A DNA stretch of 64,000 nucleotides from Bdellovibrionota bacterium (GTDB taxonomy: Bacteria; Bdellovibrionota_C; UBA2361; JAAYZI01): assembly GCA_050950765.1 (NCBI GenBank), contig JBMNIF010000002.1:1056001-1120000 (forward strand), written 5' to 3'. Positions within the stretch are counted from its first letter, which is position 1, and the number at the start of each line of letters is the position of its first letter. Positions 11,934-24,570 of this stretch are shown piece after piece. The notes beneath the pieces are model-generated. The model had not been told where the DNA came from. It saw only the letters and a list, made by a program, of their open reading frames with translations, and ran no database searches. The translations under genes and the position numbers were made by a program.

Positions 11934-14690
11934 ATGGCGAAAATCAGGATATATGAACTTGCTAGAGAGCTAGGCGTCGACAATAAAGCCGTTATCCTTA
12001 AAGCTCAAGAACTTGGGATGCCGGGTAAATTATCGCATTCCAATTCTCTTGAAGAGAGTGAAGCTGAACAGTTACGTCGAGCATTTATACGAGCGGCGGT
12101 TAGTCCTGCTCCGCAAAGCACCACTAGAGTTGTCAAAAAACAGGTTGATGTTTCAACCGGAGAGACGAGAACTATTATCGAGAGTAGGAAAGGGAACGTT
12201 GTTAGACGTAGGCGGCAAAGTGAACCGGAAGTGCAGGTTAAGCAAGAAGTAGAGCAACGTGAAGAAGAGGAGATAAAAGAGTCAACCGTCGAAGTCGCAC
12301 TTGAATCTCGTGAAGATACGACAGAAAAGGATCAGGTCTTATCAAGTGGTGTGGTACCTACTGAAGTCGTGGTGGGGGAAGAAGTTTCTGAATCTATTGC
12401 GCAAGATGAAGAAGGTTCATCTGAAGCTCTTCTTGAAGAAGAGGTGGCTTCTGCAGCAGAGAAAGTTATTTCAGAATCTGAAGTGGTAGAAGATCTTCAG
12501 GAAGAGGACTCCTCTGCAGAAGATGAGGCTGCGGAAGAAGAACAAGAGGTAAGTAAAGTTGAAGATGTTATAAAGAGAGGGGTCAAGAAAGTAATTGTAG
12601 GGCCGAAAATTTTAGGAAAGATAGAGCTACCGCAGAAAAAGAAAAAAGGTGAAAAGAGTGAAAGGGGTGAGCGTACCTTTGAAAAAGGAGGTCCCGTCGC
12701 TTCTCAATACGATGAAAGTATTGAGGATGATGAGGATGAAGAGGGCGGTCGTCGTCAAGGTGGAGGTAAAAAACGTTCTCGCAAGCGAGAGTTCACACGT
12801 GGGCAGTTAGTCGATTACGATGGCAGACCAGGGAGACGACGGGGGCCTAAAGATGCTAAAGGCAAAGGCGAGCAAGTTGAAAAAGAGGAAGCCGTTGTGG
12901 AGACGCAACCCCAAAGAGCTTCGAAACGGGTAGTCAAGATGGCTACTGATGTGATTACGGTTGGTGAACTTGCCAGACAGATGAGTTTAAAAGTTGCAGA
13001 GGTTATTTCAAAGTTAATGCAGCTCGGTGTAATGGCAACGATAAATCAAGCGGTGGACTCTGATACTGCTGCGATAGTTGCTGATGAGTTCGGCTTTACC
13101 ATTGAGTTTACCGGTTTTGATGAAGAAGAGATCTTGATGATTGAGCCGGATACTGCTGATGTCCGTATGGAGTTAAGATCTCCTGTTGTGACAGTGATGG
13201 GGCACGTTGATCACGGTAAAACTTCATTACTTGATGCAATTAGAAAAACTTCCGTAGCGGCGCGTGAACACGGAGGAATTACACAACACGTTGGAGCGTA
13301 CAAGGTAAAGCTACCAAGTAATCGTAGCGTTGTGTTTATTGATACACCTGGCCACGCTGCTTTCACTCAGATGCGTGCACGTGGTGCTGAGGTAACTGAT
13401 ATTGTGATTATCGTTGTTGCGGCAGATGACGGTGTGATGCCTCAAACAATAGAGGCTATTAACCATGCTAAAGCTGCAAATGTTAGTATCTGTGTTGCAA
13501 TTAACAAGATGGATAAGCCTGAAGCGAATCCTGATAAAGTTAAACAACAGTTAGCAGAGCGAGGGCTGCAACCGGAAGATTGGGGTGGTGATGTGATGAT
13601 GTTCCCCGTTTCTGCAGCAACTCGTGAGGGAATACCAGAGTTGTTAGAAGGCCTTTTATTGCTGGCTGAAATTAAAGAATTAAAGGCTAATGTAACGGGG
13701 CGTGCTAAGGGAACTATTATTGAATCAAGGCAGGAGCGTGGACGTGGTACCGTCGTAACATTACTGGTTCAGTCCGGATGCTTAAAGATCGGTGATATCT
13801 ATGTTTGTGGAGCTGAATACGGAAGAGTCAGGGCTCTTTACGATGATAGACAAAATAGAATTGAGGAAGCAGGCCCGTCAGATCCTGTTGAGCTCTCCGG
13901 TCTATACGGCGTACCTATGGCTGGTGATGATTTCATCGTGGTTGAAAATGAGCAGCAAGCAAAACAGGTAGCGACCAATCGTAAACAACGTAAGATGGCA
14001 AAAGATCAACTCTCCTTAGCTGGTGGTCCGATCAGCTTAGAGGAGTTTGCACGACGAGCCGGTCAGGAACAGGCTTTAGAGTTAAATATTATCATTAAAA
14101 CGGATGTGCACGGAACGTTGGAAGCGATTACGGAGTCCGTAGAGAAGCTTTCAACTCAGAAGGTCAAGGTGCGAGTCTTACACGGTGGTGTTGGTGCCAT
14201 CACTGAATCTGATGTGCAGTTGGCGTTAGCATCAAAAGCCATTATCGTTGGCTTCGGGGTGCGCGCTGAGCCTAGGACGATTAACGAAGCTGAAAGTGTT
14301 GGTGTAGAATTACGCTTTTATAGGGTAATTTACGAGTTATTGGATGATGTAAAGTTGGCGATGGCGGGGTTACTTGATCCGATTAAGAAAGAGGTTTCTT
14401 TAGCCAGAGCTGAAGTGCGAGATACCTTTGTGGTGCCTAAAACAGGTACTGTCGCAGGGTGTTATGTTTTGAACGGAACTGTTAAACGTGGTGCGCGCTT
14501 ACGATTGTTGCGGGATAATAATGTTATTCATGAAGGAAAGATGCTTTCATTGCGTCGTTTTAAGGATGATGTAAAGGAAGTGGCTGCTGGATATGAATGC
14601 GGTATCTCATTTGTCGGTTATAATGATATTAAAGTTTCCGACATTATCGAAGTTTATGAAATTGAAGAAGTTGCAGCAACGTTGGAGTAA
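11934..14690 (+). CDS. infB: Translation initiation factor IF-2
   Basis: [36 protein letters not shown]. Confidence 0.98.
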   Translation: MAKIRIYELARELGVDNKAVILKAQELGMPGKLSHSNSLEESEAEQLRRAFIRAAVSPAPQSTTRVVKKQVDVSTGETRTIIESRKGNVVRRRRQSEPEVQVKQEVEQREEEEIKESTVEVALESREDTTEKDQVLSSGVVPTEVVVGEEVSESIAQDEEGSSEALLEEEVASAAEKVISESEVVEDLQEEDSSAEDEAAEEEQEVSKVEDVIKRGVKKVIVGPKILGKIELPQKKKKGEKSERGERTFEKGGPVASQYDESIEDDEDEEGGRRQGGGKKRSRKREFTRGQLVDYDGRPGRRRGPKDAKGKGEQVEKEEAVVETQPQRASKRVVKMATDVITVGELARQMSLKVAEVISKLMQLGVMATINQAVDSDTAAIVADEFGFTIEFTGFDEEEILMIEPDTADVRMELRSPVVTVMGHVDHGKTSLLDAIRKTSVAAREHGGITQHVGAYKVKLPSNRSVVFIDTPGHAAFTQMRARGAEVTDIVIIVVAADDGVMPQTIEAINHAKAANVSICVAINKMDKPEANPDKVKQQLAERGLQPEDWGGDVMMFPVSAATREGIPELLEGLLLLAEIKELKANVTGRAKGTIIESRQERGRGTVVTLLVQSGCLKIGDIYVCGAEYGRVRALYDDRQNRIEEAGPSDPVELSGLYGVPMAGDDFIVVENEQQAKQVATNRKQRKMAKDQLSLAGGPISLEEFARRAGQEQALELNIIIKTDVHGTLEAITESVEKLSTQKVKVRVLHGGVGAITESDVQLALASKAIIVGFGVRAEPRTINEAESVGVELRFYRVIYELLDDVKLAMAGLLDPIKKEVSLARAEVRDTFVVPKTGTVAGCYVLNGTVKRGARLRLLRDNNVIHEGKMLSLRRFKDDVKEVAAGYECGISFVGYNDIKVSDIIEVYEIEEVAATLE

Positions 14691-14696
14691 TTTCTT

Positions 14697-15104
14697 GTGG
14701 CAGAAAGACGGCGTGTTTTTAAGGTTTCTGAGAGGATTCGTGAAATAGTAGCGGGAGTGTTGCCACGCGCTGCGGATCCGAGATTTTCTATGGTCACTAT
14801 AACAGGGGTGGTGGTTAGTCCTGATTTAAGAGAGGCTAAGCTTTATTGGTCTGCTCCAGATGCAAAAGATAATCTGCTTGAGATGGAAAAAGCTTTTCGT
14901 AATGCGACAGGTTTTTTTAGACGTGCCGTTGGAGATAACTTAGATCTGCGCTTTGTTCCGAATTTACGTTTTATTTATGATGATACGTTGGATGTATATG
15001 CGCAGGTGCAGGAATTGATTGCAAAGATTCCACCTGAAGATCTTGCTCCGAAGGATGCCGTTACACACTCTGAAGAACAGGATGCAGAAGATGGCGATGA
15101 CTGA
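14697..15104 (+). CDS. rbfA: Ribosome-binding factor A
   Basis: DPR..VTIT.V.VSPDL, LRFVPNLRFIYD; follows infB. Confidence 0.93.
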   Translation: MAERRRVFKVSERIREIVAGVLPRAADPRFSMVTITGVVVSPDLREAKLYWSAPDAKDNLLEMEKAFRNATGFFRRAVGDNLDLRFVPNLRFIYDDTLDVYAQVQELIAKIPPEDLAPKDAVTHSEEQDAEDGDD

Positions 15105-16146
15105 AGATCGTTCAAAAGGTGTTGAGCAAAACAGAGAGCACCACTCTGACGACTCTTTTAAAGAGAGTAAGAGAGAGGTTTGGGCTAAAATAATTGAACA
15201 GATCAGATCCGCCGAAAATATCTTGGTTGTTGCACATCAAAGTCCAGATCCGGATGCTTTCGGTTCTAGTTGTGGCATGACTTTAGCTTTAAAGTATTTT
15301 GGGAAAAATGCACTCTGCCTTAATCAAGATGGGGCTGCACCACACCTGCAATACATCCCTGACGCTTTTGCTGTTACGGATACCGTCCCTGCAGGAGAGT
15401 GGGATCTGATAATCGTTTGCGATTGTGGTGAGAAGGAAAGGATTGGATCTGAACTCCTTAATCAACTTCCGCAAGGTGTTCCGATCGTGAACCTCGATCA
15501 CCATTATTCAAATGATAATTTTGGAGATTTAAATCTCGTTCTTCCAAATGCTAGCTCCGCTTCTGAAATCGTTTTTGAAGTGGTTAGTGATCTCCTCGGA
15601 ACGTTAACTCCAGAGATTGCAGAGTGTTTATTAACTGGAATAATTGCAGACACAGGCGGGTTTCGTTATTCATCAGCTACGGCATATACCTTTATTGTAG
15701 CTGAAAAATTAATTAAAGCCGGTGCTAATCTTGAACGTGTAAATCGTAATCTATTTAGTAATCGCTCTCTAGCAGCAGTACGTTTAGCGGCGGCGGCGAT
15801 CTCTGCAATGAAGATTCACGCTGCGGGAAAGGTCGTAGAGATCTTAGTAACGGAAGAGATGATGCAGCGTTTCTCGGCGCAACCGACAGATTGCGAAGGT
15901 TTGGTTGATGCAGGACGTGATATTGAGGGGGTTTGTGTTTCAATTTTAATTCGTAAAGATGGAGATCTTTGGAAGGTTAGTTTAAGGTCTAAATATTCAG
16001 AGTGTAATGTTTCAGAGGTGGCAGCCACTTTTAATGGTGGTGGGCATGTGCAAGCAGCTGCCTGTCGTTGGAGCGGAGAGTTAGAAGATCTTAGAAGTTC
16101 ATTATTGGCTAAAGTAATTCAAGTTGTTAATGATTCAGGAAAATGA
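15097..16146 (+). CDS. nrnA: DHH/DHHA1 oligoribonuclease/pAp phosphatase
   Basis: HQSPDPDA, LDHH, DTGGF, SLRS, GGGH; start approximate. Confidence 0.9.
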   Translation: MTEDRSKGVEQNREHHSDDSFKESKREVWAKIIEQIRSAENILVVAHQSPDPDAFGSSCGMTLALKYFGKNALCLNQDGAAPHLQYIPDAFAVTDTVPAGEWDLIIVCDCGEKERIGSELLNQLPQGVPIVNLDHHYSNDNFGDLNLVLPNASSASEIVFEVVSDLLGTLTPEIAECLLTGIIADTGGFRYSSATAYTFIVAEKLIKAGANLERVNRNLFSNRSLAAVRLAAAAISAMKIHAAGKVVEILVTEEMMQRFSAQPTDCEGLVDAGRDIEGVCVSILIRKDGDLWKVSLRSKYSECNVSEVAATFNGGGHVQAAACRWSGELEDLRSSLLAKVIQVVNDSGK

Positions 16147-17014
16147 ACACCGATCAGGGATCGTTTTATTAGATAAGCCTGCCGGAATTACTTCGGCGAA
16201 GGCGATCGCTATCTTAAAACGGAGATTACGGTGTAAAAAGATAGGGCATGCTGGAACCTTAGATCCTATGGCAACAGGGTTGCTTGTTTGCTTAATCAAT
16301 GGTGCTACTAAATTAGCGGCGTTGGCGGTAGCAGGTGATAAAGTTTATTCAGGAACCTTTCTATTTGGTGTTGTTACCGATACGGATGACATTGAAGGAA
16401 AAGTCATCTCGCACTCTCTTGATTTGCCGACATTTGATCAGGTGCAAGAGCACCTTAAGAGCTTTCTTGGAACAATAGAGCAGGTGCCTCCGCAAGTCAG
16501 TGCAATAAAGGTCGATGGAGAGCCTCTTTATAAACGTGTCAGGCGGGGCGAGGAGGTAGTTATAACGCCACGTTCTGTAACGATTCACTCCTTTGAGATC
16601 TTTCCGACGGAGGTGCCTGAAAAGTTTGATTTTAGAATACACTGCTCTAAGGGGACGTATATCAGATCTATTGCAAGAGATTTAGGCGTTGCTGTGGGGT
16701 GTGGAGCTTGCTTGGCGAAGCTACGTCGTGAGAAGTCTTATCCTTTTGACACTATCAACGGAAAAAAAATTGAAGAAATTGATGCTTCTGACATCTTGGA
16801 TTGGTGGACTTTGCTCCCTGATGTTGGGATGATAGAGCTGGAAGATGGTGCTGCGCAACGTCTTAAAAATGGGGATCAATCTCTACTAACGAAGATATCC
16901 GAGTCTTTCCCTGATGTTAACAGTGTGATTTATGGGGATAGTCGTTACCGTTACGGGGTCTTGGTTAGGGAAACGCTTGACGGTGCTTGGAAGATAGCCG
17001 TTAATGTGGTGTAG
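16130..17014 (+). CDS. truB: tRNA pseudouridine(55) synthase
   Basis: DKP, GHAGTLDPMATG, SKGTYIRS. Confidence 0.97.
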   Translation: MIQENEHRSGIVLLDKPAGITSAKAIAILKRRLRCKKIGHAGTLDPMATGLLVCLINGATKLAALAVAGDKVYSGTFLFGVVTDTDDIEGKVISHSLDLPTFDQVQEHLKSFLGTIEQVPPQVSAIKVDGEPLYKRVRRGEEVVITPRSVTIHSFEIFPTEVPEKFDFRIHCSKGTYIRSIARDLGVAVGCGACLAKLRREKSYPFDTINGKKIEEIDASDILDWWTLLPDVGMIELEDGAAQRLKNGDQSLLTKISESFPDVNSVIYGDSRYRYGVLVRETLDGAWKIAVNVV

Positions 17015-17054
17015 TGAGATGTTATATGTTTTTTAATCTTACAGGAGAAGATAG

Positions 17055-18362
17055 ATGCCATCTTTAGTATTAGTCGGTGCCCAATGGGGTGACGAAGGCA
17101 AGGGGAAACTCGTTGATTATTTAGCGCCGAAGGCGAATTGGGTTGTCCGTTTTCAAGGCGGAAATAATGCGGGTCACACCGTTATTGTCGGAGAAAAAAC
17201 ATATAAATTAAGCCTTATACCATCAGGAATTTTACATACCGAAACGTGTTGTGCATTAGGAGCGGGGGTCGTGATTGATCCGGAAGTGCTATTAAGTGAG
17301 ATGGCAAAGCTTAATGAAGATGGTGTTAGTACTTCGCCAGAGCGTTTGATTGTAGATAGAGATGCTCATCTGATCCTTGAATATCATAAATTGATTGATG
17401 TCGCACGTGAGCACTCTATGGGTGCTGCTAAGATCGGCACAACGGGGCGAGGTATTGGGCCAGCCTACGAAGATAGAGCAGCTAGAATGGGTGTGCGGAT
17501 GGCTGATCTCTTTGATCTGGGGGCGTTAAAGAAGAGGTTACGAGAGATTACAGATCAGAAGAATCTTTATTTATCAGGTGTTTTGGGGAGTGCAACGGTG
17601 GCTGATTTTGATCAAATTTGGCAGGTCGTAGAGCGAGCTGCTGAAAAGTTGTGTCCTCATGTGCGTAACGTCAGTTTGTTGATCGATCAAGCGCTGCAAA
17701 ACGGTAAGAAGGTGCTTTTTGAAGGTGCACAAGGAACGTTGCTGGATCAGATGCACGGAACAGTTCCGTTTGTAACTTCTTCAAATACAGTGGCGGGTGC
17801 TGCTGCTACCGGTACGGGGATCGGACCTAATAAGATAGATTACGTTTTAGGTATTGTAAAAGCTTATACGACCCGTGTGGGGAGTGGGCCATTCCCAACT
17901 GAATTGAATGATAAGGATGGCGATCACCTTTGCGAGAAAGGGCGGGAGTTCGGCACCGTCACGGGTAGAAAAAGACGGTGCGGTTGGTTTGATGGTGTGG
18001 CGATGCGACGGGCTGTCAGATTAAACGGTATAAATTCTTTTGCCATCACTAAATTGGATGTTCTTTCAGGTTTAGATACTTTAAAAATTTGCACTAAATA
18101 TAAACTTGATGGGGAGTATATTGATGATGTGCCACCTCTCGCTAGTGAGAGTGCTAGGGTGCAGCCTGAGTATATTGAATTAGCTGGCTGGAAAGAAGAT
18201 ATCTCAACGGTAAAGTCGTGGCAGGAGTTGCCAGAGGCTGCTAAAAGATATCTTTCGACTATTTCGGACGTTACAGGTTGTCAGATCTCTGTTTTGAGTA
18301 TAGGACCAGATCGAGATTCAACGATCTTTTCAGATTGTTCACAGTTTATCCGTAACTTTTAA
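17055..18362 (+). CDS. purA: Adenylosuccinate synthase
   Basis: GAQWGDEGKGK, GGNNAGHT, GIGPAY, GRKRRCGW. Confidence 0.98.
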   Translation: MPSLVLVGAQWGDEGKGKLVDYLAPKANWVVRFQGGNNAGHTVIVGEKTYKLSLIPSGILHTETCCALGAGVVIDPEVLLSEMAKLNEDGVSTSPERLIVDRDAHLILEYHKLIDVAREHSMGAAKIGTTGRGIGPAYEDRAARMGVRMADLFDLGALKKRLREITDQKNLYLSGVLGSATVADFDQIWQVVERAAEKLCPHVRNVSLLIDQALQNGKKVLFEGAQGTLLDQMHGTVPFVTSSNTVAGAAATGTGIGPNKIDYVLGIVKAYTTRVGSGPFPTELNDKDGDHLCEKGREFGTVTGRKRRCGWFDGVAMRRAVRLNGINSFAITKLDVLSGLDTLKICTKYKLDGEYIDDVPPLASESARVQPEYIELAGWKEDISTVKSWQELPEAAKRYLSTISDVTGCQISVLSIGPDRDSTIFSDCSQFIRNF

Positions 18363-18384
18363 AGGTGATGAGGAGTTGAAAGTC

Positions 18385-19716
18385 ATGCAGAATGAGGTGC
18401 CGCAAAAAATTCTTATAATTGATGATGAAGAGAGTATCTGCCGTACATTAACTGCTATCTTTAAGGATGAAGGCTTTGCGCCGATCTCTGCACAAGATGG
18501 AGAAACGGGGTTGCAACTTATTCGAGAATCATCACCAGCTCTAGTGTTGCTGGATATCTGGATGCCGAGTATGGATGGGATTGAGGTCTTACAAAAGATT
18601 AAAGAGATAGATCACGATATCCCTGTTGTGATGATTAGTGGGCACGCTACTATTTCGACTGCGTTGCAGGCGACTCGGATGGGTGCTGCGGATTTTATTG
18701 AAAAGCCTCTGGAATTGGAAGCTACTATGCGCGTTGTTAGGCGTGTGCTCGGGATAACAGATCTTGAAAACGAAGTTGAAGCAGGGCAGGTCTCAGAAGA
18801 AAAAGCGACAGCGGAGTGGGTTATCAATGGTGGGAGCGAAGGGGTAGCCATTAACAGAGTTGTTTTTGAAGATCAGAAATGGCGCGGGCGTAAAGTAACA
18901 CAAAAGACCTTAAAACACAGCGCAATCTTATACGGGCACGGTGTGCATAGTGGAAAGAAATCAGGTTTGCTACTTGAGCCGTTAGGTGCAAATTGTGGGA
19001 TCCATTTTACAGCTGTTGCTTCAACACAAGCTGTACCAGCACATCTGAATTACGTTCATTCAACAGGGTATGCCACAACGATTAGAGAGGGTGAAAATAG
19101 CGTTGCTACTGTGGAGCATTTAATGTCTGCTTTACATGCCTATGGCATAACTAATCTACTGATAAAGTGTAACGGTGAAGTGCCTGTTATGGATGGTTCG
19201 GCGCTAGAGTTTTGTAACCTCTTTGATCAAGTTGGTCTTGAGGAACAGGTAGGAGATTTTTATGAAATCGAAGTAAAGCACGCCGTTCGGATCGGAAATG
19301 AGAAGGAGTATATCTTACTTGAGCCTGCCGATGAATTTTCAATTGAATATACCTTGCAATATCCAGAACCGATTGGGCGACAGTATATGCAGTTTACTTT
19401 AGAGAGCCCTGCGACATTTGTAGATTTTGTGGCACCAGCTAGAACTTTCGGATTTGTAAGGGATATCGGTGCACTGCAGAAGCAAGGTTTAGCGCAAGGC
19501 GGACGCTTTGATAATTTTGTGCTTGTTGGAGAAGATGGGATTATTAACGCAGATTTGCGTTATCCTGATGAGCCCGTGCGGCATAAAATTCTAGATATGA
19601 TTGGAGACCTTTACCTTTTAGGACGACCGATCCGTGGAAAGATTACTGCTTGTATGACGGGTCATTCTGATAATATTGCGTTATTGAGGGCGTTGCAAAA
19701 GGAGATGAATAAATAA
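18385..19716 (+). CDS. lpxC: Response-regulator receiver domain fused to UDP-3-O-acyl-GlcNAc deacetylase LpxC
   Basis: REC: IIDDE, LLDIWMP.MDG, ISGH, FIEKP; LpxC: TVEHLMSAL, EVPVMDGSA, ARTFGF, HKILDMIGDL, GH; AGGAG RBS before ATG 18385. Confidence 0.92.
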   Translation: MQNEVPQKILIIDDEESICRTLTAIFKDEGFAPISAQDGETGLQLIRESSPALVLLDIWMPSMDGIEVLQKIKEIDHDIPVVMISGHATISTALQATRMGAADFIEKPLELEATMRVVRRVLGITDLENEVEAGQVSEEKATAEWVINGGSEGVAINRVVFEDQKWRGRKVTQKTLKHSAILYGHGVHSGKKSGLLLEPLGANCGIHFTAVASTQAVPAHLNYVHSTGYATTIREGENSVATVEHLMSALHAYGITNLLIKCNGEVPVMDGSALEFCNLFDQVGLEEQVGDFYEIEVKHAVRIGNEKEYILLEPADEFSIEYTLQYPEPIGRQYMQFTLESPATFVDFVAPARTFGFVRDIGALQKQGLAQGGRFDNFVLVGEDGIINADLRYPDEPVRHKILDMIGDLYLLGRPIRGKITACMTGHSDNIALLRALQKEMNK

Positions 19717-19815
19717 AGGTAGATTATTTAGCCTCCAATCTGAGATAATCTTTTATTTTTAAGTTTTTTCTCGGTACTATACTGTATTGTTGCGGCTTTG
19801 ATTTGAGGGGTATTT

Positions 19816-20814
19816 ATGTTTTGTATTTCAGGACGTGATCTAGCGGTAGATTTGGGAACCTCCAATACACTGGTGTATATAAAAGGTAAGGGGGTCGTGC
19901 TTAATGAGCCTAGTGTTGTAGCTTTAAAGCAGCGTGGTAAGCGTCGAACTCCGATCGCGTTTGGAGCTGAAGCTAAAAATATCTTGGGGAAAGCTCCAGA
20001 AGGAGTGGTGGTGGTGCGCCCTGTTAGAGCAGGCGTTATCTCTGATTTTGAATCAGCTGGGATAATGCTAAATCAATTTTTAAGAACAGCTTTAAAGGCG
20101 CGTAGCTTTATAAAACCGCAAGTTGTAGTTACGGTTCCAAATACGATCTCAGAAGTTGAGAAGAGAGCTATTCGAGATTCTATTGAAGGAAGTGCTTCGA
20201 TTAAATTAATAGATCAAGCTATGGCTGCTGCTATCGGATCTGATCTGCCTGTGAAAGAACCTTCTGCTAGTATGATCGTTGATATCGGGGGTGGTACAAC
20301 GGACGTTGCTGTAATCAGTATGGGACAACTTGTTTGTTGTCAATCGGCGAGACAGGGAGGGGAGGCGGTTGATGATGCTATTATAAATTACCTTAGACGC
20401 CATCATCAGTTTATTATTGGAGAGACGACGGCCGAAAATATCAAAAAAACGTTAGGCTCTGCGCAGGCAGAGTACGATGATGAAGAGATGGAGGTGCGGG
20501 GGCGCAGTGTGACTAAAGGCACCCCTGCTACTACGGTCGTAACAAGTGGAGAGATAAGAGCTGCTATTGCAGAGCCTCTTAGTGGGATAATTTCAACGAT
20601 ACGTCACACCTTAGAGGTGACTCCGCCTGAGTTGGCAGGGGATATTATGTCAATCGGGTTAGTGCTGGTTGGAGGTGGTGCGCTCTTGCGTGGTTTAGAT
20701 CGCTTGATCTCTGATGAATTGCAAGTCGCTGTAAGAATTGCCGAAGATCCGCTAGGGGCGATCGTGGCAGGGGCTGGGAAGTGTTTGGAAAAAAATATCT
20801 CTGATGAGATTTAA
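19816..20814 (+). CDS. mreB: MreB/Mbl-family actin-like protein
   Basis: DLGTSNT, VDIGGGTTD, GGGALLRG; no mreC/mreD adjacent. Confidence 0.9.
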   Translation: MFCISGRDLAVDLGTSNTLVYIKGKGVVLNEPSVVALKQRGKRRTPIAFGAEAKNILGKAPEGVVVVRPVRAGVISDFESAGIMLNQFLRTALKARSFIKPQVVVTVPNTISEVEKRAIRDSIEGSASIKLIDQAMAAAIGSDLPVKEPSASMIVDIGGGTTDVAVISMGQLVCCQSARQGGEAVDDAIINYLRRHHQFIIGETTAENIKKTLGSAQAEYDDEEMEVRGRSVTKGTPATTVVTSGEIRAAIAEPLSGIISTIRHTLEVTPPELAGDIMSIGLVLVGGGALLRGLDRLISDELQVAVRIAEDPLGAIVAGAGKCLEKNISDEI

Positions 20815-21131
20815 GGGTCAAATAGTGGCTCTGTAAGCCTTAAAACCGTTAGGTAAAACTCTAAAATCGGTTACAACTTTTTAAAAAGTGCGCTTCTTCT
20901 CTTATGGCGCAGATCGTTGCCACGCATCTACCGAGTATGCTCGGTAGATGTTAATTGAAAGGTTTGCTGTTGTAAAAAGTTTGTAAAATTTAAAAAATCT
21001 TATATAATCCCCGTGTAAAATTCTTCTTGACAGGAAGAACTTAATCGAGGGAGCGTGGCACTGATTAAGGGTCATAAAAACGAGAAAAATACAATTTTTT
21101 TTATTTATTTTATCTTTTTTATCTGATTTCA

Positions 21132-21159
21132 TTGACATAATCGCTCCATAGATGATAAC
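21132..21159 (+). promoter_or_regulatory. Putative sigma70 promoter of the str operon
   Basis: TTGACA-16 bp-GATAAC with AT-rich upstream region. Confidence 0.45.
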
Positions 21160-21438
21160 AAAGCGCGTCGTTTCAAGACTGCAAGCTTTTAGTTCGCTGT
21201 TTTGAGGAGATGCAAGGCTTCCACCTCGGGGAAGTAACCATCTCATGACGTTTTGCTGCCAGATTCAACCTCTACGGTTGCCAATCTTAACCGAGGATAA
21301 GCAGCGAAATAGTATAAACGTGTTGAGATAGAGAAGTTGTCTTTTGTTCCCTTCTCTCTCTGATCTGATGCGTGTTGCGTCGTGCGATGTGTGTCGGATT
21401 TTGTAAGTTCGAATAATTGGATCGATGGAGCGGCTGGT

Positions 21439-21810
21439 ATGCCAACTATTAATCAGTTAGTACGTAATCGTAGGCAGGATAAGAGATACAAGAGTAAAAG
21501 TCCTGCCCTTAAAGAGTGTCCACAAAGACGTGGAGTTTGCACCCGTGTTTACACGCAAACTCCGAAGAAGCCTAACTCAGCTTTGCGTAAGGTAGCAAAG
21601 GTTAGACTTACGACAGGGGTGGAGGTTGCTTCTTATATCCCTGGAATTGGGCATAATCTGCAGGAGCACTCAGTTGTGTTAATTCGTGGTGGTCGTGTTA
21701 GAGACCTCCCAGGTGTTAGGTACCATATTATCCGTGGTAAGCTTGAAGCGCAGGGAGTACAGGGACGTCAGCAGAGTCGTTCTAAGTACGGTGCTAAGAG
21801 ACCTAAGTAA
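21439..21810 (+). CDS. rpsL: 30S ribosomal protein S12
   Basis: [27 protein letters not shown]. Confidence 0.99.
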
Positions 21811-21852
21811 CGTTTGTGTGTTGATTTTTAATCGTCCCGTTTGGGGGGTGTT

Positions 21853-22323
21853 ATGACAAGAAAGAAAAGAGATTTTTCCCGTCCGATTCTTCCGGATCCT
21901 AAGTATGGCGACACTGTTTTAGCTAAGGCTATGAATGTTATTATGCGTGATGGCAAGAAAAGTGTTGCTGAGAAAGCGCTCTATAATGCGTTAGAGATTA
22001 TGCAGAGTAAGTTAAAAGCGGATCCGTTGGAGAGTTTTAGAAAGGCGCTCTCTAATATTGAGCCTGTGGTTGAGGTGCGCTCTCGTCGTGTTGGTGGTGC
22101 TACTTATCAGGTGCCGACGGAGGTTAGCGCAAAACGTGGGCAGGCTTTAGCTTTGAGGTGGCTTGTTAAATATGCCAATGCTCGTAGTGAGCGTACCCTC
22201 GCAGAGAGACTTTCTGGAGAGTTAATGGACGCTTTGCAAGGACGTGGTGCTTGTGTGAAGAAGAGGGAGGATACCCATAGAATGGCAGAAGCCAACAAGG
22301 CGTTTGCACATTTCCGTTGGTAA
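21853..22323 (+). CDS. rpsG: 30S ribosomal protein S7
   Basis: [23 protein letters not shown]. Confidence 0.99.
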
Positions 22324-22470
22324 TTTTTTTACTCAGCTCGATTTCCTTTTTTTGTTGATAACGTTGCAAAGTGTGGAAATGTGATTGCTGTGATGTTTTG
22401 AATGGCAGATCTTAATGGTGGAGATCTGTAAAATGACACTGAATTATATCTTTCAGTGGGTGAGGTAAAA

Positions 22471-24570
22471 GTGGCGAAAGTAAACCTTGAAAGGGTACGA
22501 AATATCGGAATTATGGCGCATATTGATGCGGGTAAGACAACTACGACCGAGCGTATCCTTTTTTATACCGGTGTTAATTACAAAGTTGGCGAAACCCATG
22601 AGGGTGCGGCTACTATGGATTTCATGGAGTTGGAGCAGGAGAGGGGGATTACTATCGCTTCTGCTGCTACTACGTGTGAGTGGAGAGGCTCTTATGCTGA
22701 CCGTCCTGCGCATAAGATTAATATTATTGATACACCAGGTCACGTTGATTTTACGATTGAAGTTGAAAGAAGCCTTAGAGTCCTAGATGGTGCTGTGGCT
22801 GTCTTTGATGCTGTTTCTGGAGTTGAGCCCCAGTCTGAAACGGTCTGGAGGCAAGCTAATAAGTTTAATGTTCCTAGGATCTGTTTTATCAATAAGATGG
22901 ATCGTGTCGGGGCTGATTTTGATAAGTGTTATGAGTCGATCTGTTCAAGGCTACATGCAGAGGCTCTACCAATTCAAATTCCGATCGGTGCTGAAGCCAA
23001 CTTCCAAGGGGTTATCGATCTAGTTCAGATGAAGGCCATCGTTTTTGTTGAAGGGACGATGGGATCGAAGTTTAATGTGGAAGATATTCCAGCTGATTTA
23101 AAAGAGAAGGCTGAAAAGGCTAGAGAGCATATGCTGGAGGGCTTGGCTGATACTGATGAAGGTATCATGGAGAAGTATCTGCAAGGTGATGAACTTTCCA
23201 GTGCCGAGATAATTGCTGCTATTCGTAAAGCCACTGTGGAGATGAAGATCTTCCCGATGCTTTGTGGAACTGCTTTTAAGAACAAGGGTGTGCAACCTTT
23301 GTTGGATGCTATTATAGATTTTCTTCCATCCCCGTTAGATGTTCCAGCGGTGAAGGGTTATCCGATGGATAGCAAGGAGGGTGAAGAGCCTTCTATTGAG
23401 AGAAAAGCCAGTGATAGTGAGCCGTTTTCTGCCTTAGCGTTTAAGATAGTTACAGATCCGTACGTCGGTGTTCTGACCTTCTTCCGTGTTTATTCTGGAA
23501 AAATTGCAGCTGGTGCCACTGTTTTGAACTCTACTAGAGATAGTAAAGAGCGTTTCGGTCGTATCCTTAGGATACATGCGGATAAACGTGAAGAGATTAA
23601 AGAGCTCTCTACCGGTGATATCGGTGCGGCAGTGGGCTTAAAGGAAGTTGTGACAGGTGATACCTTGTGTGATCCTGCGAATCCTGTTGTCTTTGAAAGT
23701 ATATTTGCTCCGGAGCCTGTTATTAGTGTGGCGATGGAAGCTAAAACGAAATCTGACGCAGATAAACTTACAACTGCCCTGTTAAAGTTAACTAAGGAAG
23801 ATCCGTCATTAAAATTTAAGTCCGATGAAGAGACAGGGCAACTCGTGGTTTCTGGCATGGGTGAGCTGCATCTCGATATTATTAGACAACGTCTACTACG
23901 TGAGTTTGGTGTTGATTGTACCGTAGGCAAGCCGCAGGTAGCTTACAGAGAAACTGTTAAAACTAAGATTGAACATCAACTTAAATACGCCAAACAATCT
24001 GGTGGTCGTGGACAATATGCTGAGGTTTATTTACGTGTTGAGCCGCTGGGACGTGGTGGTGGATTCGAGTTTGTTGATGAGATTAAAGGTGGGGTGGTTC
24101 CTAAAGAGTATATCGGACCTACGAAGGCCGGTGTTGAGGACGCTTTGAAGAGCGGTGCTCTTGCAGGATTCCCCGTAATTGATGTAAAAGTGACGCTTTA
24201 TTTCGGTAGTTTTCATGAAGTTGACTCTAGCGAGATGGCGTTTAGGATTTGTGGTTCTATGTGCTTCAAGGAAGCGTGTCGTAAGGCTGGTATGGAGCTA
24301 CTTGAACCGATTATGTCGTTGGAAGTTGTTTCTCCTGATGAATTCGTTAGTAACGTTGTCGGAGATCTCAATAGAAGGCGTGCAAGAATTTTAGGCATGT
24401 CAGCACGTGGAGGTGCACAGGCTATCAAGGCAAGTGTTCCACTGTCTGAGATGTTCGGTTATGCCACGGACTTGCGCTCGAGCTCTCAAGGTCGAGCAAT
24501 GTTTACCATGGAGTATGACCATTACGATGTGGTGCCTGCGCAGATTGCTGAAGGGATTACTACTAAGTAG
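22471..24570 (+). CDS. fusA: Elongation factor G
   Basis: [30 protein letters not shown]. Confidence 0.99.

Follow-up and report, generated by a model that had tools for sequence, protein, structure and literature searches.

The gene considered here lies in a window of 64,000 nucleotides, the whole stretch of DNA that was analyzed (contig JBMNIF010000002.1, positions 1,056,001 to 1,120,000, assembly GCA_050950765.1), from a Bdellovibrionota bacterium. In a single open frame of 443 amino acids plus stop, it encodes a response-regulator receiver domain (REC), a linker and the lipid A enzyme LpxC (Table 1). LpxC performs the committed step in making lipid A, and in E. coli it is controlled by FtsH/LapB/YejM proteolysis. 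A preliminary description of this DNA had reported one uninterrupted open reading frame (ORF) and proposed a phosphorylation switch on lipid A synthesis. The frame is as described: the ORF list holds one ORF at 18376..19716 on the forward strand, with the ATG at 18385 in the same frame and no internal stop. Our analysis suggests that a sensor kinase may control lipid A synthesis directly, through the receiver fused to LpxC.

Table 1. Coordinates of the receiver-LpxC gene, its parts, its neighbors and the NtrY-like kinase gene encoded elsewhere in the genome.
Feature	Coordinates	Strand	Remarks
REC-LpxC gene	18385..19716	+	ORF, translation, Pfam and NCBIfam matches; sole LpxC found in the genome
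Receiver (REC), residues 9-116	18409..18732	+	Pfam PF00072; NtrX/NtrC type (ISGHATI...DFIEKP)
Codon of predicted phospho-acceptor Asp57 (LLDIWMP)	18553..18555	+	D57 in 142/142 family members
Linker, residues 117-172	18733..18900	+	Poorly conserved, variable in length; 127-151 predicted disordered
LpxC deacetylase domain, residues 173-438	18901..19698	+	PF03331, TIGR00325 and structure matches
GAGGAG ribosome-binding-like box	18370..18375	+	9 nt 5' of ATG 18385; abuts alternative TTG
purA (adenylosuccinate synthetase), upstream neighbor	17055..18362	+	Recognized from translation
mreB, downstream neighbor	19816..20814	+	Recognized from translation
NtrY-like kinase gene	contig C3:223395-225635 (L105 6393-8612)	- in L105	738 amino acids; NtrY_N-HAMP-PAS-HisKA-HATPase_c

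The receiver matches the Pfam family Response_reg at residues 9-116 with 99.3 bits against a cut-off of 30.2. An AlphaFold2 model built on a 40-row alignment folds it as five strand-helix units at residues 8-122 (pLDDT 82-97), the (beta-alpha)5 fold of receivers. All the receiver motifs reported in the preliminary description are in place: D13-D14-E15, D57 in LLDIWMP, S85 in ISGH and K107 in EKP. Conservation was read from an alignment of 142 family members, namely the REC-LpxC protein, 21 loci of its phylum (down to 34% identity) and 120 database homologs, the last being close kin of one another. D57, S85, K107 and W59 are kept in 142/142 members, D13 and D14 in 140/142, and the aromatic switch residue F104 in 137/142. 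Pseudo-receivers exist in other families and typically lose some phosphorylation or switch residues. The domain could likewise be a pseudo-receiver, a permanent structural or localization module on a constitutively active LpxC, and no kinase gene is adjacent to the fusion in its own phylum. The near-invariance of these residues, down to the most distant members, argues against such a module and makes it very improbable.

Among NCBIfam receiver families, the best match is NtrX (NF051870), at 123 bits over the receiver only and short of the curated cut-off of 600 bits, followed by AtoC (102.5) and RssB (93.8). The best solved receivers are 4d6x and 5m7n, the second titled 'Nitrogen assimilation regulatory protein'. 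A Pfam scan of the REC-LpxC protein found neither an AAA+ domain nor an HTH_8 DNA-binding domain. By its family matches, the receiver is best read as derived from NtrX, the regulator of the NtrY/NtrX two-component family.

The enzyme is also full length. PF03331 matches residues 173-438 with 280.5 bits (cut-off 27) over profile positions 1-267 of 268, and TIGR00325 (lpxC) scores 243.6 bits (cut-off 187.25). By sequence, the protein matches solved LpxC structures at E 3e-50 to 4e-43; the Pseudomonas, E. coli and Yersinia chains are 36-39% identical to it, and that of Aquifex is 33% identical. Foldseek against the PDB (P. aeruginosa, E. coli and A. aeolicus LpxC) gives E values near 1e-30, target-normalized TM scores of 0.82-0.95 and, among the LpxC chains listed, root-mean-square deviations of 1.5-2.6, except for one row at 4.3. 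H245, H400 and D404 are candidate zinc ligands and E244, H427, T354, K401 and D408 candidate catalytic residues; H245, H400, D404, E244 and H427 align with conserved residues of the solved enzymes. The full set of LpxC motifs that had been recognized from the translation (E244-H245, H400-K401..D404 and G426-H427) is confirmed. E244, H245, T354, F355, H400, K401, D404 and D408 are kept in 142/142 family members and H427 in 141/142. F355 excepted, these residues also recur in at least 97% of a set of 102 LpxC domains, both fused and unfused. Profile searches found LpxB and LpxK in the genome, so a lipid A pathway exists here. The LpxC domain looks functional, and is predicted to be the intact, active deacetylase of the genome.

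The carboxyl terminus differs from that of the E. coli enzyme. The protein ends at residue 443, five residues past the Pfam LpxC domain, and E. coli LpxC aligns with it only as far as chain residue 276 of 305, which leaves no counterpart of the E. coli-type C-terminal tail. In E. coli, this tail is the FtsH degron. The receiver might control the amount of LpxC: its phosphorylation would unmask or mask a signal for degradation, or bring in a protease, as with RssB and CpdR, and such control would replace the FtsH/LapB route. RssB is among the family matches of the receiver, and proteolysis is the rule for LpxC control where it has been studied, according to a 2025 review, 'The regulation of lipid A biosynthesis' (PMC12444477). 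The LapB zinc ribbon (PF18073) had no match in the genome, which is 94% complete; this 28-position model is non-specific, matching 10/14 control genomes, Gram-positives included, so the lack of a match says little. None of the scanned loci has a protease or adaptor gene linked to the fusion, and no degron was identified from sequence. We consider control through stability unlikely.

The linker is the least conserved part of the protein, with a mean column identity of 0.53 in the family alignment compared to 0.81 for the receiver and 0.84 for LpxC. It had been put at about 45 amino acids. A linker is indeed there, and it measures 56 amino acids between the Pfam boundaries, with about 25 (residues 127-151) disordered in the model, at pLDDT below 50. 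Its last 15 or so residues (VF..Q..RGR) are kept in the consensus of the phylum family. The model as a whole has a pLDDT of 87.3 and a pTM of 0.83. Such a pTM despite a disordered tether suggests, as far as a model can, that REC and LpxC may pack in a defined manner. A two-chain docking prediction of LpxC (152-443) against the receiver (1-126), with 40-row alignments for each, gave a score of 0.00 and a mark of 0.32, and counts neither way.

The fusion is fixed across the phylum. The assembly to which the window belongs (2.64 Mb in 5 contigs, 94% complete) holds a single PF03331 match, the REC-LpxC gene, which answers the question of whether this is the only lpxC of the genome. A class search and a phylum search gave the identical set of 124 genomes, 120 of which match REC-LpxC at E <= 1e-30. 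Both domains stand in one frame in 112/124 (counted from the match table, with frames checked), and eight genomes show only part or two halves of the fusion. No LpxC was found in the other four: G072 (90% complete), G073 (82%), G033 (66%) and G056 (77%). Separate receiver and LpxC genes, which the preliminary description had raised as a finding that would speak against a true fusion, occur in 0/124 genomes, and none has a second, separate LpxC beside the fused one at E <= 1e-30. All of the 120 best database homologs listed (57-99% identity, 423-468 amino acids) carry both Pfam domains.

These counts also bear on whether an assembly or annotation artifact has joined two neighboring genes. The low conservation of the linker would fit a false joint, and the gene is broken at contig ends in 8/124 genomes of the phylum. 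The cases checked (G114, G115, G054 and G059) are indeed breaks at contig ends, and the others start at contig base 2-11 or are partial. One frame in 112 separately assembled genomes and fusion in every one of the best 120 listed homologs argue against a joint. Independent public contigs also cross the junction, as the preliminary description had wished to see confirmed. A single contig of 10,545 nucleotides from run X7 spans 18300-19800 with 7 substitutions and no indel, and a contig of 972 nucleotides from run X6 spans 18300-19250, which holds the receiver, the linker and the start of LpxC, without indel or joint. An artifact was thus tested and not supported, and its probability is negligible.

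The stretch 18300-19800 recurs nearly letter for letter in runs from 15 studies of anaerobic digester, bioreactor, biogas fermenter and landfill metagenomes, so the organism appears to live regularly in engineered anaerobic systems. One RNA-library run (X20) yielded a single contig of 206 nucleotides at 18810-19015, which is no demonstration of transcription.

The REC-LpxC architecture is not rare and occurs widely in public data. When one genome per species was scanned, at least 80 loci came back, and these were sorted with home-built profiles. At least 25 are REC-LpxC, two of them from the phylum of the window; at least five are longer REC-X-LpxC forms of about 705-765 amino acids, and at least one (L047) is an apparently frameshifted fusion. 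Plain LpxC accounts for at least 42 loci, and LpxC with a FabZ-like C-terminal extension, assigned from length without a domain scan, for at least seven. By record title, the REC-LpxC loci come from Thermoanaerobaculia, Holophagae, Terriglobia, Aminicenantes, Binataceae, Syntrophobacteraceae, Syntrophorhabdus and Desulfocapsaceae, and further from a Myxococcota metagenome-assembled genome (MAG) and the isolate Desulfopila sp. IMCC35006. ESM Atlas shows the REC+LpxC architecture in 17 of the 30 nearest clusters (with, for example, 128, 500 and 55 members), and also holds a 730-residue Sigma54_activat+AAA_lid+LpxC cluster with 381 members. Copy number was followed in five genomes of other phyla: two have no LpxC besides the fusion, Desulfopila and a Terriglobia MAG have an extra plain LpxC, and a Holophagae MAG has the fusion and a partial second match.

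The five long forms (L027, L038, L041, L046 and L051) point to where the fusion may have come from. Four were scanned with Pfam (L027, L038, L046 and L051) and consist of REC, a weak-scoring sigma-54-type AAA+ domain, AAA_lid_14 and LpxC, with HTH_8 only in L038; L041 was assigned by motif search. Regular-expression searches found Walker A kept in all five, and did not find GAFTGA, ESELFGH or a canonical Walker B. The three ordinary NtrC-type regulators of the window's own genome have all of these motifs by the same searches, except one without GAFTGA. Between REC-LpxC and L038, the receivers are 49% identical and the LpxC domains 48%; REC-LpxC lacks the middle part, and its linker has no residual homology beyond chance to the AAA+/HTH portion of the longer proteins. 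NtrX is matched over its whole profile by the first 420 residues of L038, at 251 bits compared to 193 for AtoC and below the cut-off of 600. By these matches, the long form is a predicted whole NtrX-like regulator fused to LpxC, with a decayed AAA+ domain.

One long form needs a comment of its own. L027 is a contig of 3.2 kb, with a coverage of 0.34 in its name, that is titled Promethearchaeota archaeon and carries a bacterial-type REC-AAA+-LpxC gene. Because the contig is so short and thin, the gene seems to be there through faulty binning and not to represent an archaeal LpxC.

When 102 LpxC domains are placed in an unrooted maximum-likelihood tree (quick search, support by SH-aLRT only), a branch of length 0.52 with 100% SH-aLRT separates the 49 unfused LpxC from the 53 receiver-bearing ones. 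The window's phylum forms a clade of 24 rows with 98% support, and the five long forms fall at three places among the short forms. Repeated loss of the AAA+ domain seems simpler than repeated gain, although the tree has no root and its starred branches force only two changes. Signature residues of the fused clade across the 102 domains are G194, K261, C277, R374, L380 and T425. The position of K261 is Glu in 36/49 unfused domains, and that of R374 is Ser in 46/49.

If the receiver is functional, a kinase must be found for it. That no kinase gene is adjacent, as reported earlier, stands for 14000-24000 of the window, where none was found. It needs amending for the rest of the genome, which encodes a single conserved NtrY-like kinase without an adjacent regulator. 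The lead comes from other phyla, where 61 of the 119 neighbor ORFs called in 17 loci were scanned against Pfam. A kinase of 748-794 amino acids abuts the fusion upstream on the same strand in five of these loci (L029, L032, L037, L038 and L042). All five kinases have HAMP, PAS, HisKA and HATPase_c, and all except that of L032 have NtrY_N. The gene order is ruvA-ruvB-kinase-fusion in L029 and L032, and mutS-DUF4390-kinase-long fusion in L038. Another locus, L040 from an Acidobacteria MAG, has a complete NtrC-type regulator (L040:2679-4076, Sigma54_activat 242 bits) about 1.7 kb upstream of REC-LpxC on the same strand, and no adjacent NtrY-type kinase in the part scanned.

NtrY_N (PF19312) has exactly one match in the window's own genome, and among controls it matches only in Caulobacter. 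The gene that it marks lies elsewhere in the genome, on contig C3, in the order yebC-ruvA-ruvB-DUF4390 (PlrP-like)-ntrY. Downstream of it come 1.6 kb free of long ORFs, followed by an aminotransferase gene; no regulator is adjacent. PlrP, a DUF4390 protein, is proposed as the third component of PlrSR, an NtrYX-family system of Bordetella, and plrP homologs are reported always to colocalize with ntrYX homologs (PMC13001219). The DUF4390 gene in front, together with this colocalization, supports naming the kinase NtrY-like. All five fusion-adjacent kinases match it over the full length with 32-36% identity and E values of 1e-116 to 1e-146, the next kinase of the genome being at 1e-21. By these matches it is the predicted ortholog of the kinases that abut the fusion in other phyla.

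The kinase is conserved in the phylum. Its sensor region (residues 1-320) is found in 117/124 genomes and in 73/73 high-quality ones, mostly once. It follows ruvB in 15/15 further genomes of the phylum, seven of which have a DUF4390-like gene between, and, in all 15, a home-built profile for receivers matched no ORF in the surrounding 12-16 kb. The 16 kinases that have no regulator beside them share a nearly identical His-box and first DHp helix (AHEIKNPLTPIQLSA) with the five fusion-adjacent ones; two other kinases of the genome found by pattern differ there.

Just downstream of the NtrY-like kinase gene lies about 1 kb of repeat-rich sequence that has no long ORFs (L105:5367-6330, C3 about 222366-223329). 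It holds seven direct-repeat families, with at least seven copies of a GGGTGGCACCA-containing 41-mer and three 127-nucleotide copies. This stretch had no Rfam match and no inverted repeats.

Three genomes of the phylum stand apart. G031 and G032 (loci L008 and L009; family f22; 1.2-1.8 Mb, 80-85% complete) have by far the most diverged REC-LpxC of the phylum, with 34-36% identity and a shared branch length of 1.77, and LpxB was found only in G032. G073, a single contig of 2.3 Mb, is without LpxC and the NtrY-like kinase and with LpxB; at 82% it is too incomplete to speak of co-loss.

A phosphorylation switch on LpxC is supported as far as sequence evidence reaches, because the receiver quintet is conserved, the fusion is the sole LpxC and is found phylum-wide, and an NtrY-type kinase stands beside it elsewhere. 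The specific model that we favor, with a probability of roughly 65%, is that the NtrY-like kinase sets the phosphorylation of Asp57, which would alter the arrangement of receiver and LpxC and with it the flux into lipid A.

Several observations weigh against this model. The other 12 of the 17 other-phylum loci have no such kinase beside the fusion, among the 61 ORFs scanned. Where the fusion and the kinase share a contig in the phylum they are 37 to 280 kb apart, and the two genes are unlinked throughout. The kinase was not found in G031 and G032, which keep the fusion. An ESM Atlas model of the protein has a lower pTM, 0.67, than our own. LpxC is monomeric, so how dimerization of the receiver would act on it is not obvious. 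Finally, the genome has 15 kinase ORFs and 34 receiver ORFs by home-built profiles, and among these are three other non-hybrid kinases without an adjacent regulator (C2:200515, C2:1162748 and C5:50124) and two orphan NtrC-type regulators (C2:293019 and C1:213627) that are possible alternative partners of the NtrY-like kinase. The receiver of the fusion might then be phosphorylated by one of those kinases, or by acetyl phosphate, while the NtrY-like kinase serves an orphan NtrC-type regulator. Against another donor, the NtrC-type regulators of the genome match AtoC/NtrC best and not NtrX, the family that the receiver of the fusion matches best. The fusion also holds the NtrX slot behind NtrY-type kinases in five other-phylum loci, and the DHp helix is nearly identical between those kinases and the ones in this phylum. 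We therefore think a different phosphoryl donor improbable, though a good deal less so than a pseudo-receiver.

In the favored model, control of LpxC by the NtrY-like kinase, that membrane kinase (C3:223395-225635) would sense an envelope-related signal and, with its DUF4390 partner, would set the phosphorylation state of Asp57. A change on the Ser85/Phe104 face would then alter how the receiver sits against the tethered LpxC, or the oligomeric state, and the activity of LpxC, hence the flux into lipid A, would change post-translationally. The likeliest mode would be that of CheB, in which the unphosphorylated receiver restrains a monomeric hydrolase; here one state of the receiver would restrain the enzyme and the other would release it. 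Three features favor a CheB-like mode: LpxC is a hydrolase and monomeric, the linker shows disorder and no conserved coiled coil, and the pTM of the model is high for a pair of domains on a disordered tether. As the fusion is the sole LpxC, at least one state of the receiver must permit activity.

The stop codon of purA is at 18360-18362, which leaves a gap of only 22 nucleotides, and the REC-LpxC gene is probably cotranscribed with purA. Within this gap, no promoter-like or terminator-like site was found in a scan of 16900-21000; over the whole of that range, 7 promoter-like and 2 terminator-like sites compare to means of 7.8 and 3.1 in shuffled sequence, so there is no excess. The ATG at 18385 is the likelier start because the GAGGAG box is 9 nucleotides ahead of it, whereas the alternative TTG follows that box immediately. 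Across the gene, base composition runs on without a break. The position between purA and mreB, noted at the outset, is correct, and homologs of both recur beside the gene in relatives. A purA homolog is directly upstream of the fusion in 15/24 loci of the phylum compared to 0/78 loci from elsewhere, and mreB is downstream in 4/24.

Comparison with known systems places the fusion nearest to the NtrY/NtrX family, which includes alphaproteobacterial NtrYX and Bordetella PlrS/PlrR with PlrP. Its receiver best matches NtrX, its relatives keep a decayed AAA+ domain and sit behind NtrY-type kinases, and the NtrY-like kinase gene retained in its genome has a DUF4390 gene ahead. It differs in that NtrX binds DNA and acts on the transcription of many genes, whereas the fusion has lost AAA+ and HTH and has an enzyme as its output. 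Unlike ntrX, the fusion gene is not beside ntrY in its own genome or in the 15 other genomes of the phylum. A link between NtrYX and lpxC or lipopolysaccharide (LPS) levels is known from Rhodobacter and Caulobacter. When Rhodobacter sphaeroides loses NtrYX, its lpxC transcripts rise 8.8-fold and its LPS rises as well, without an NtrX site at lpxC (PMC7240162). The lipid A review states that NtrYX inhibits lpxC transcription in R. sphaeroides and Caulobacter and does 'not specifically modulate LpxC activity'; the words 'receiver', 'fusion' and 'response regulator' occur 0 times in its text (PMC12444477). Another two-component system dedicated to lipid A is DVU2931/DVU2934 of Desulfovibrio vulgaris, whose sigma-54-type regulator DVU2934 has lpxC as its single mapped target (PMC3333781). 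There, unlike here, control is transcriptional, and regulator and LpxC are separate proteins.

With the stand-alone LpxC of E. coli, Pseudomonas aeruginosa and Aquifex aeolicus, the fusion shares a full-length domain and all zinc and catalytic residues. It differs by its N-terminal receiver and linker, by the lack of the E. coli C-terminal tail, and by its separate clade. Its layout, with receiver, flexible linker and catalytic domain in one chain, is that of CheB, of the REC-GGDEF proteins PleD and WspR and of the REC-HD-GYP protein RpfG. The other known LpxC fusion is LpxC-FabZ (NCBIfam NF009667; at least 7/80 loci in our scan). It joins two enzymes of competing pathways, has FabZ at the C-terminus of LpxC and no signaling domain, and falls in the unfused clade. 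One paper touching on LpxC, domain architecture and Response_reg mentioned only an LpxC-FabA fusion (PF03331-PF04977). We found no paper on a receiver-LpxC fusion in a search that had subscription-only journals outside its coverage, and LpxC as an output domain of response regulators appeared in none of the papers covered. The fusion is thus visible in databases and apparently undescribed in print.

What is added here is an entire phylum where no LpxC other than the fusion was found. There the fusion has parted from its kinase and now lies behind purA, while the kinase stays behind ruvAB without a regulator beside it. LpxC is the point at which lipopolysaccharide synthesis is controlled, and antibiotic development counts it among its leading targets. 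The fusion is predicted to tie a response regulator to a new enzymatic output and to be a new mode of LpxC control. If this is true, a receiver on the sole LpxC of a phylum would place the committed step under direct post-translational two-component control. The fusion physically links NtrYX signaling to LpxC in one protein, and so bears on the purpose of a poorly understood family of sensors. It is tempting to go further, and to propose that the fusion replaces E. coli-type proteolytic control in at least one phylum and that the long NtrX-LpxC forms would be evolutionary intermediates, a suggestion that we hold tentatively and at somewhat less than even odds. In that case, control of the outer membrane, and not of nitrogen, would be the ancestral job of NtrYX, and the transcriptional link between NtrYX and lpxC in Alphaproteobacteria would be its remnant.

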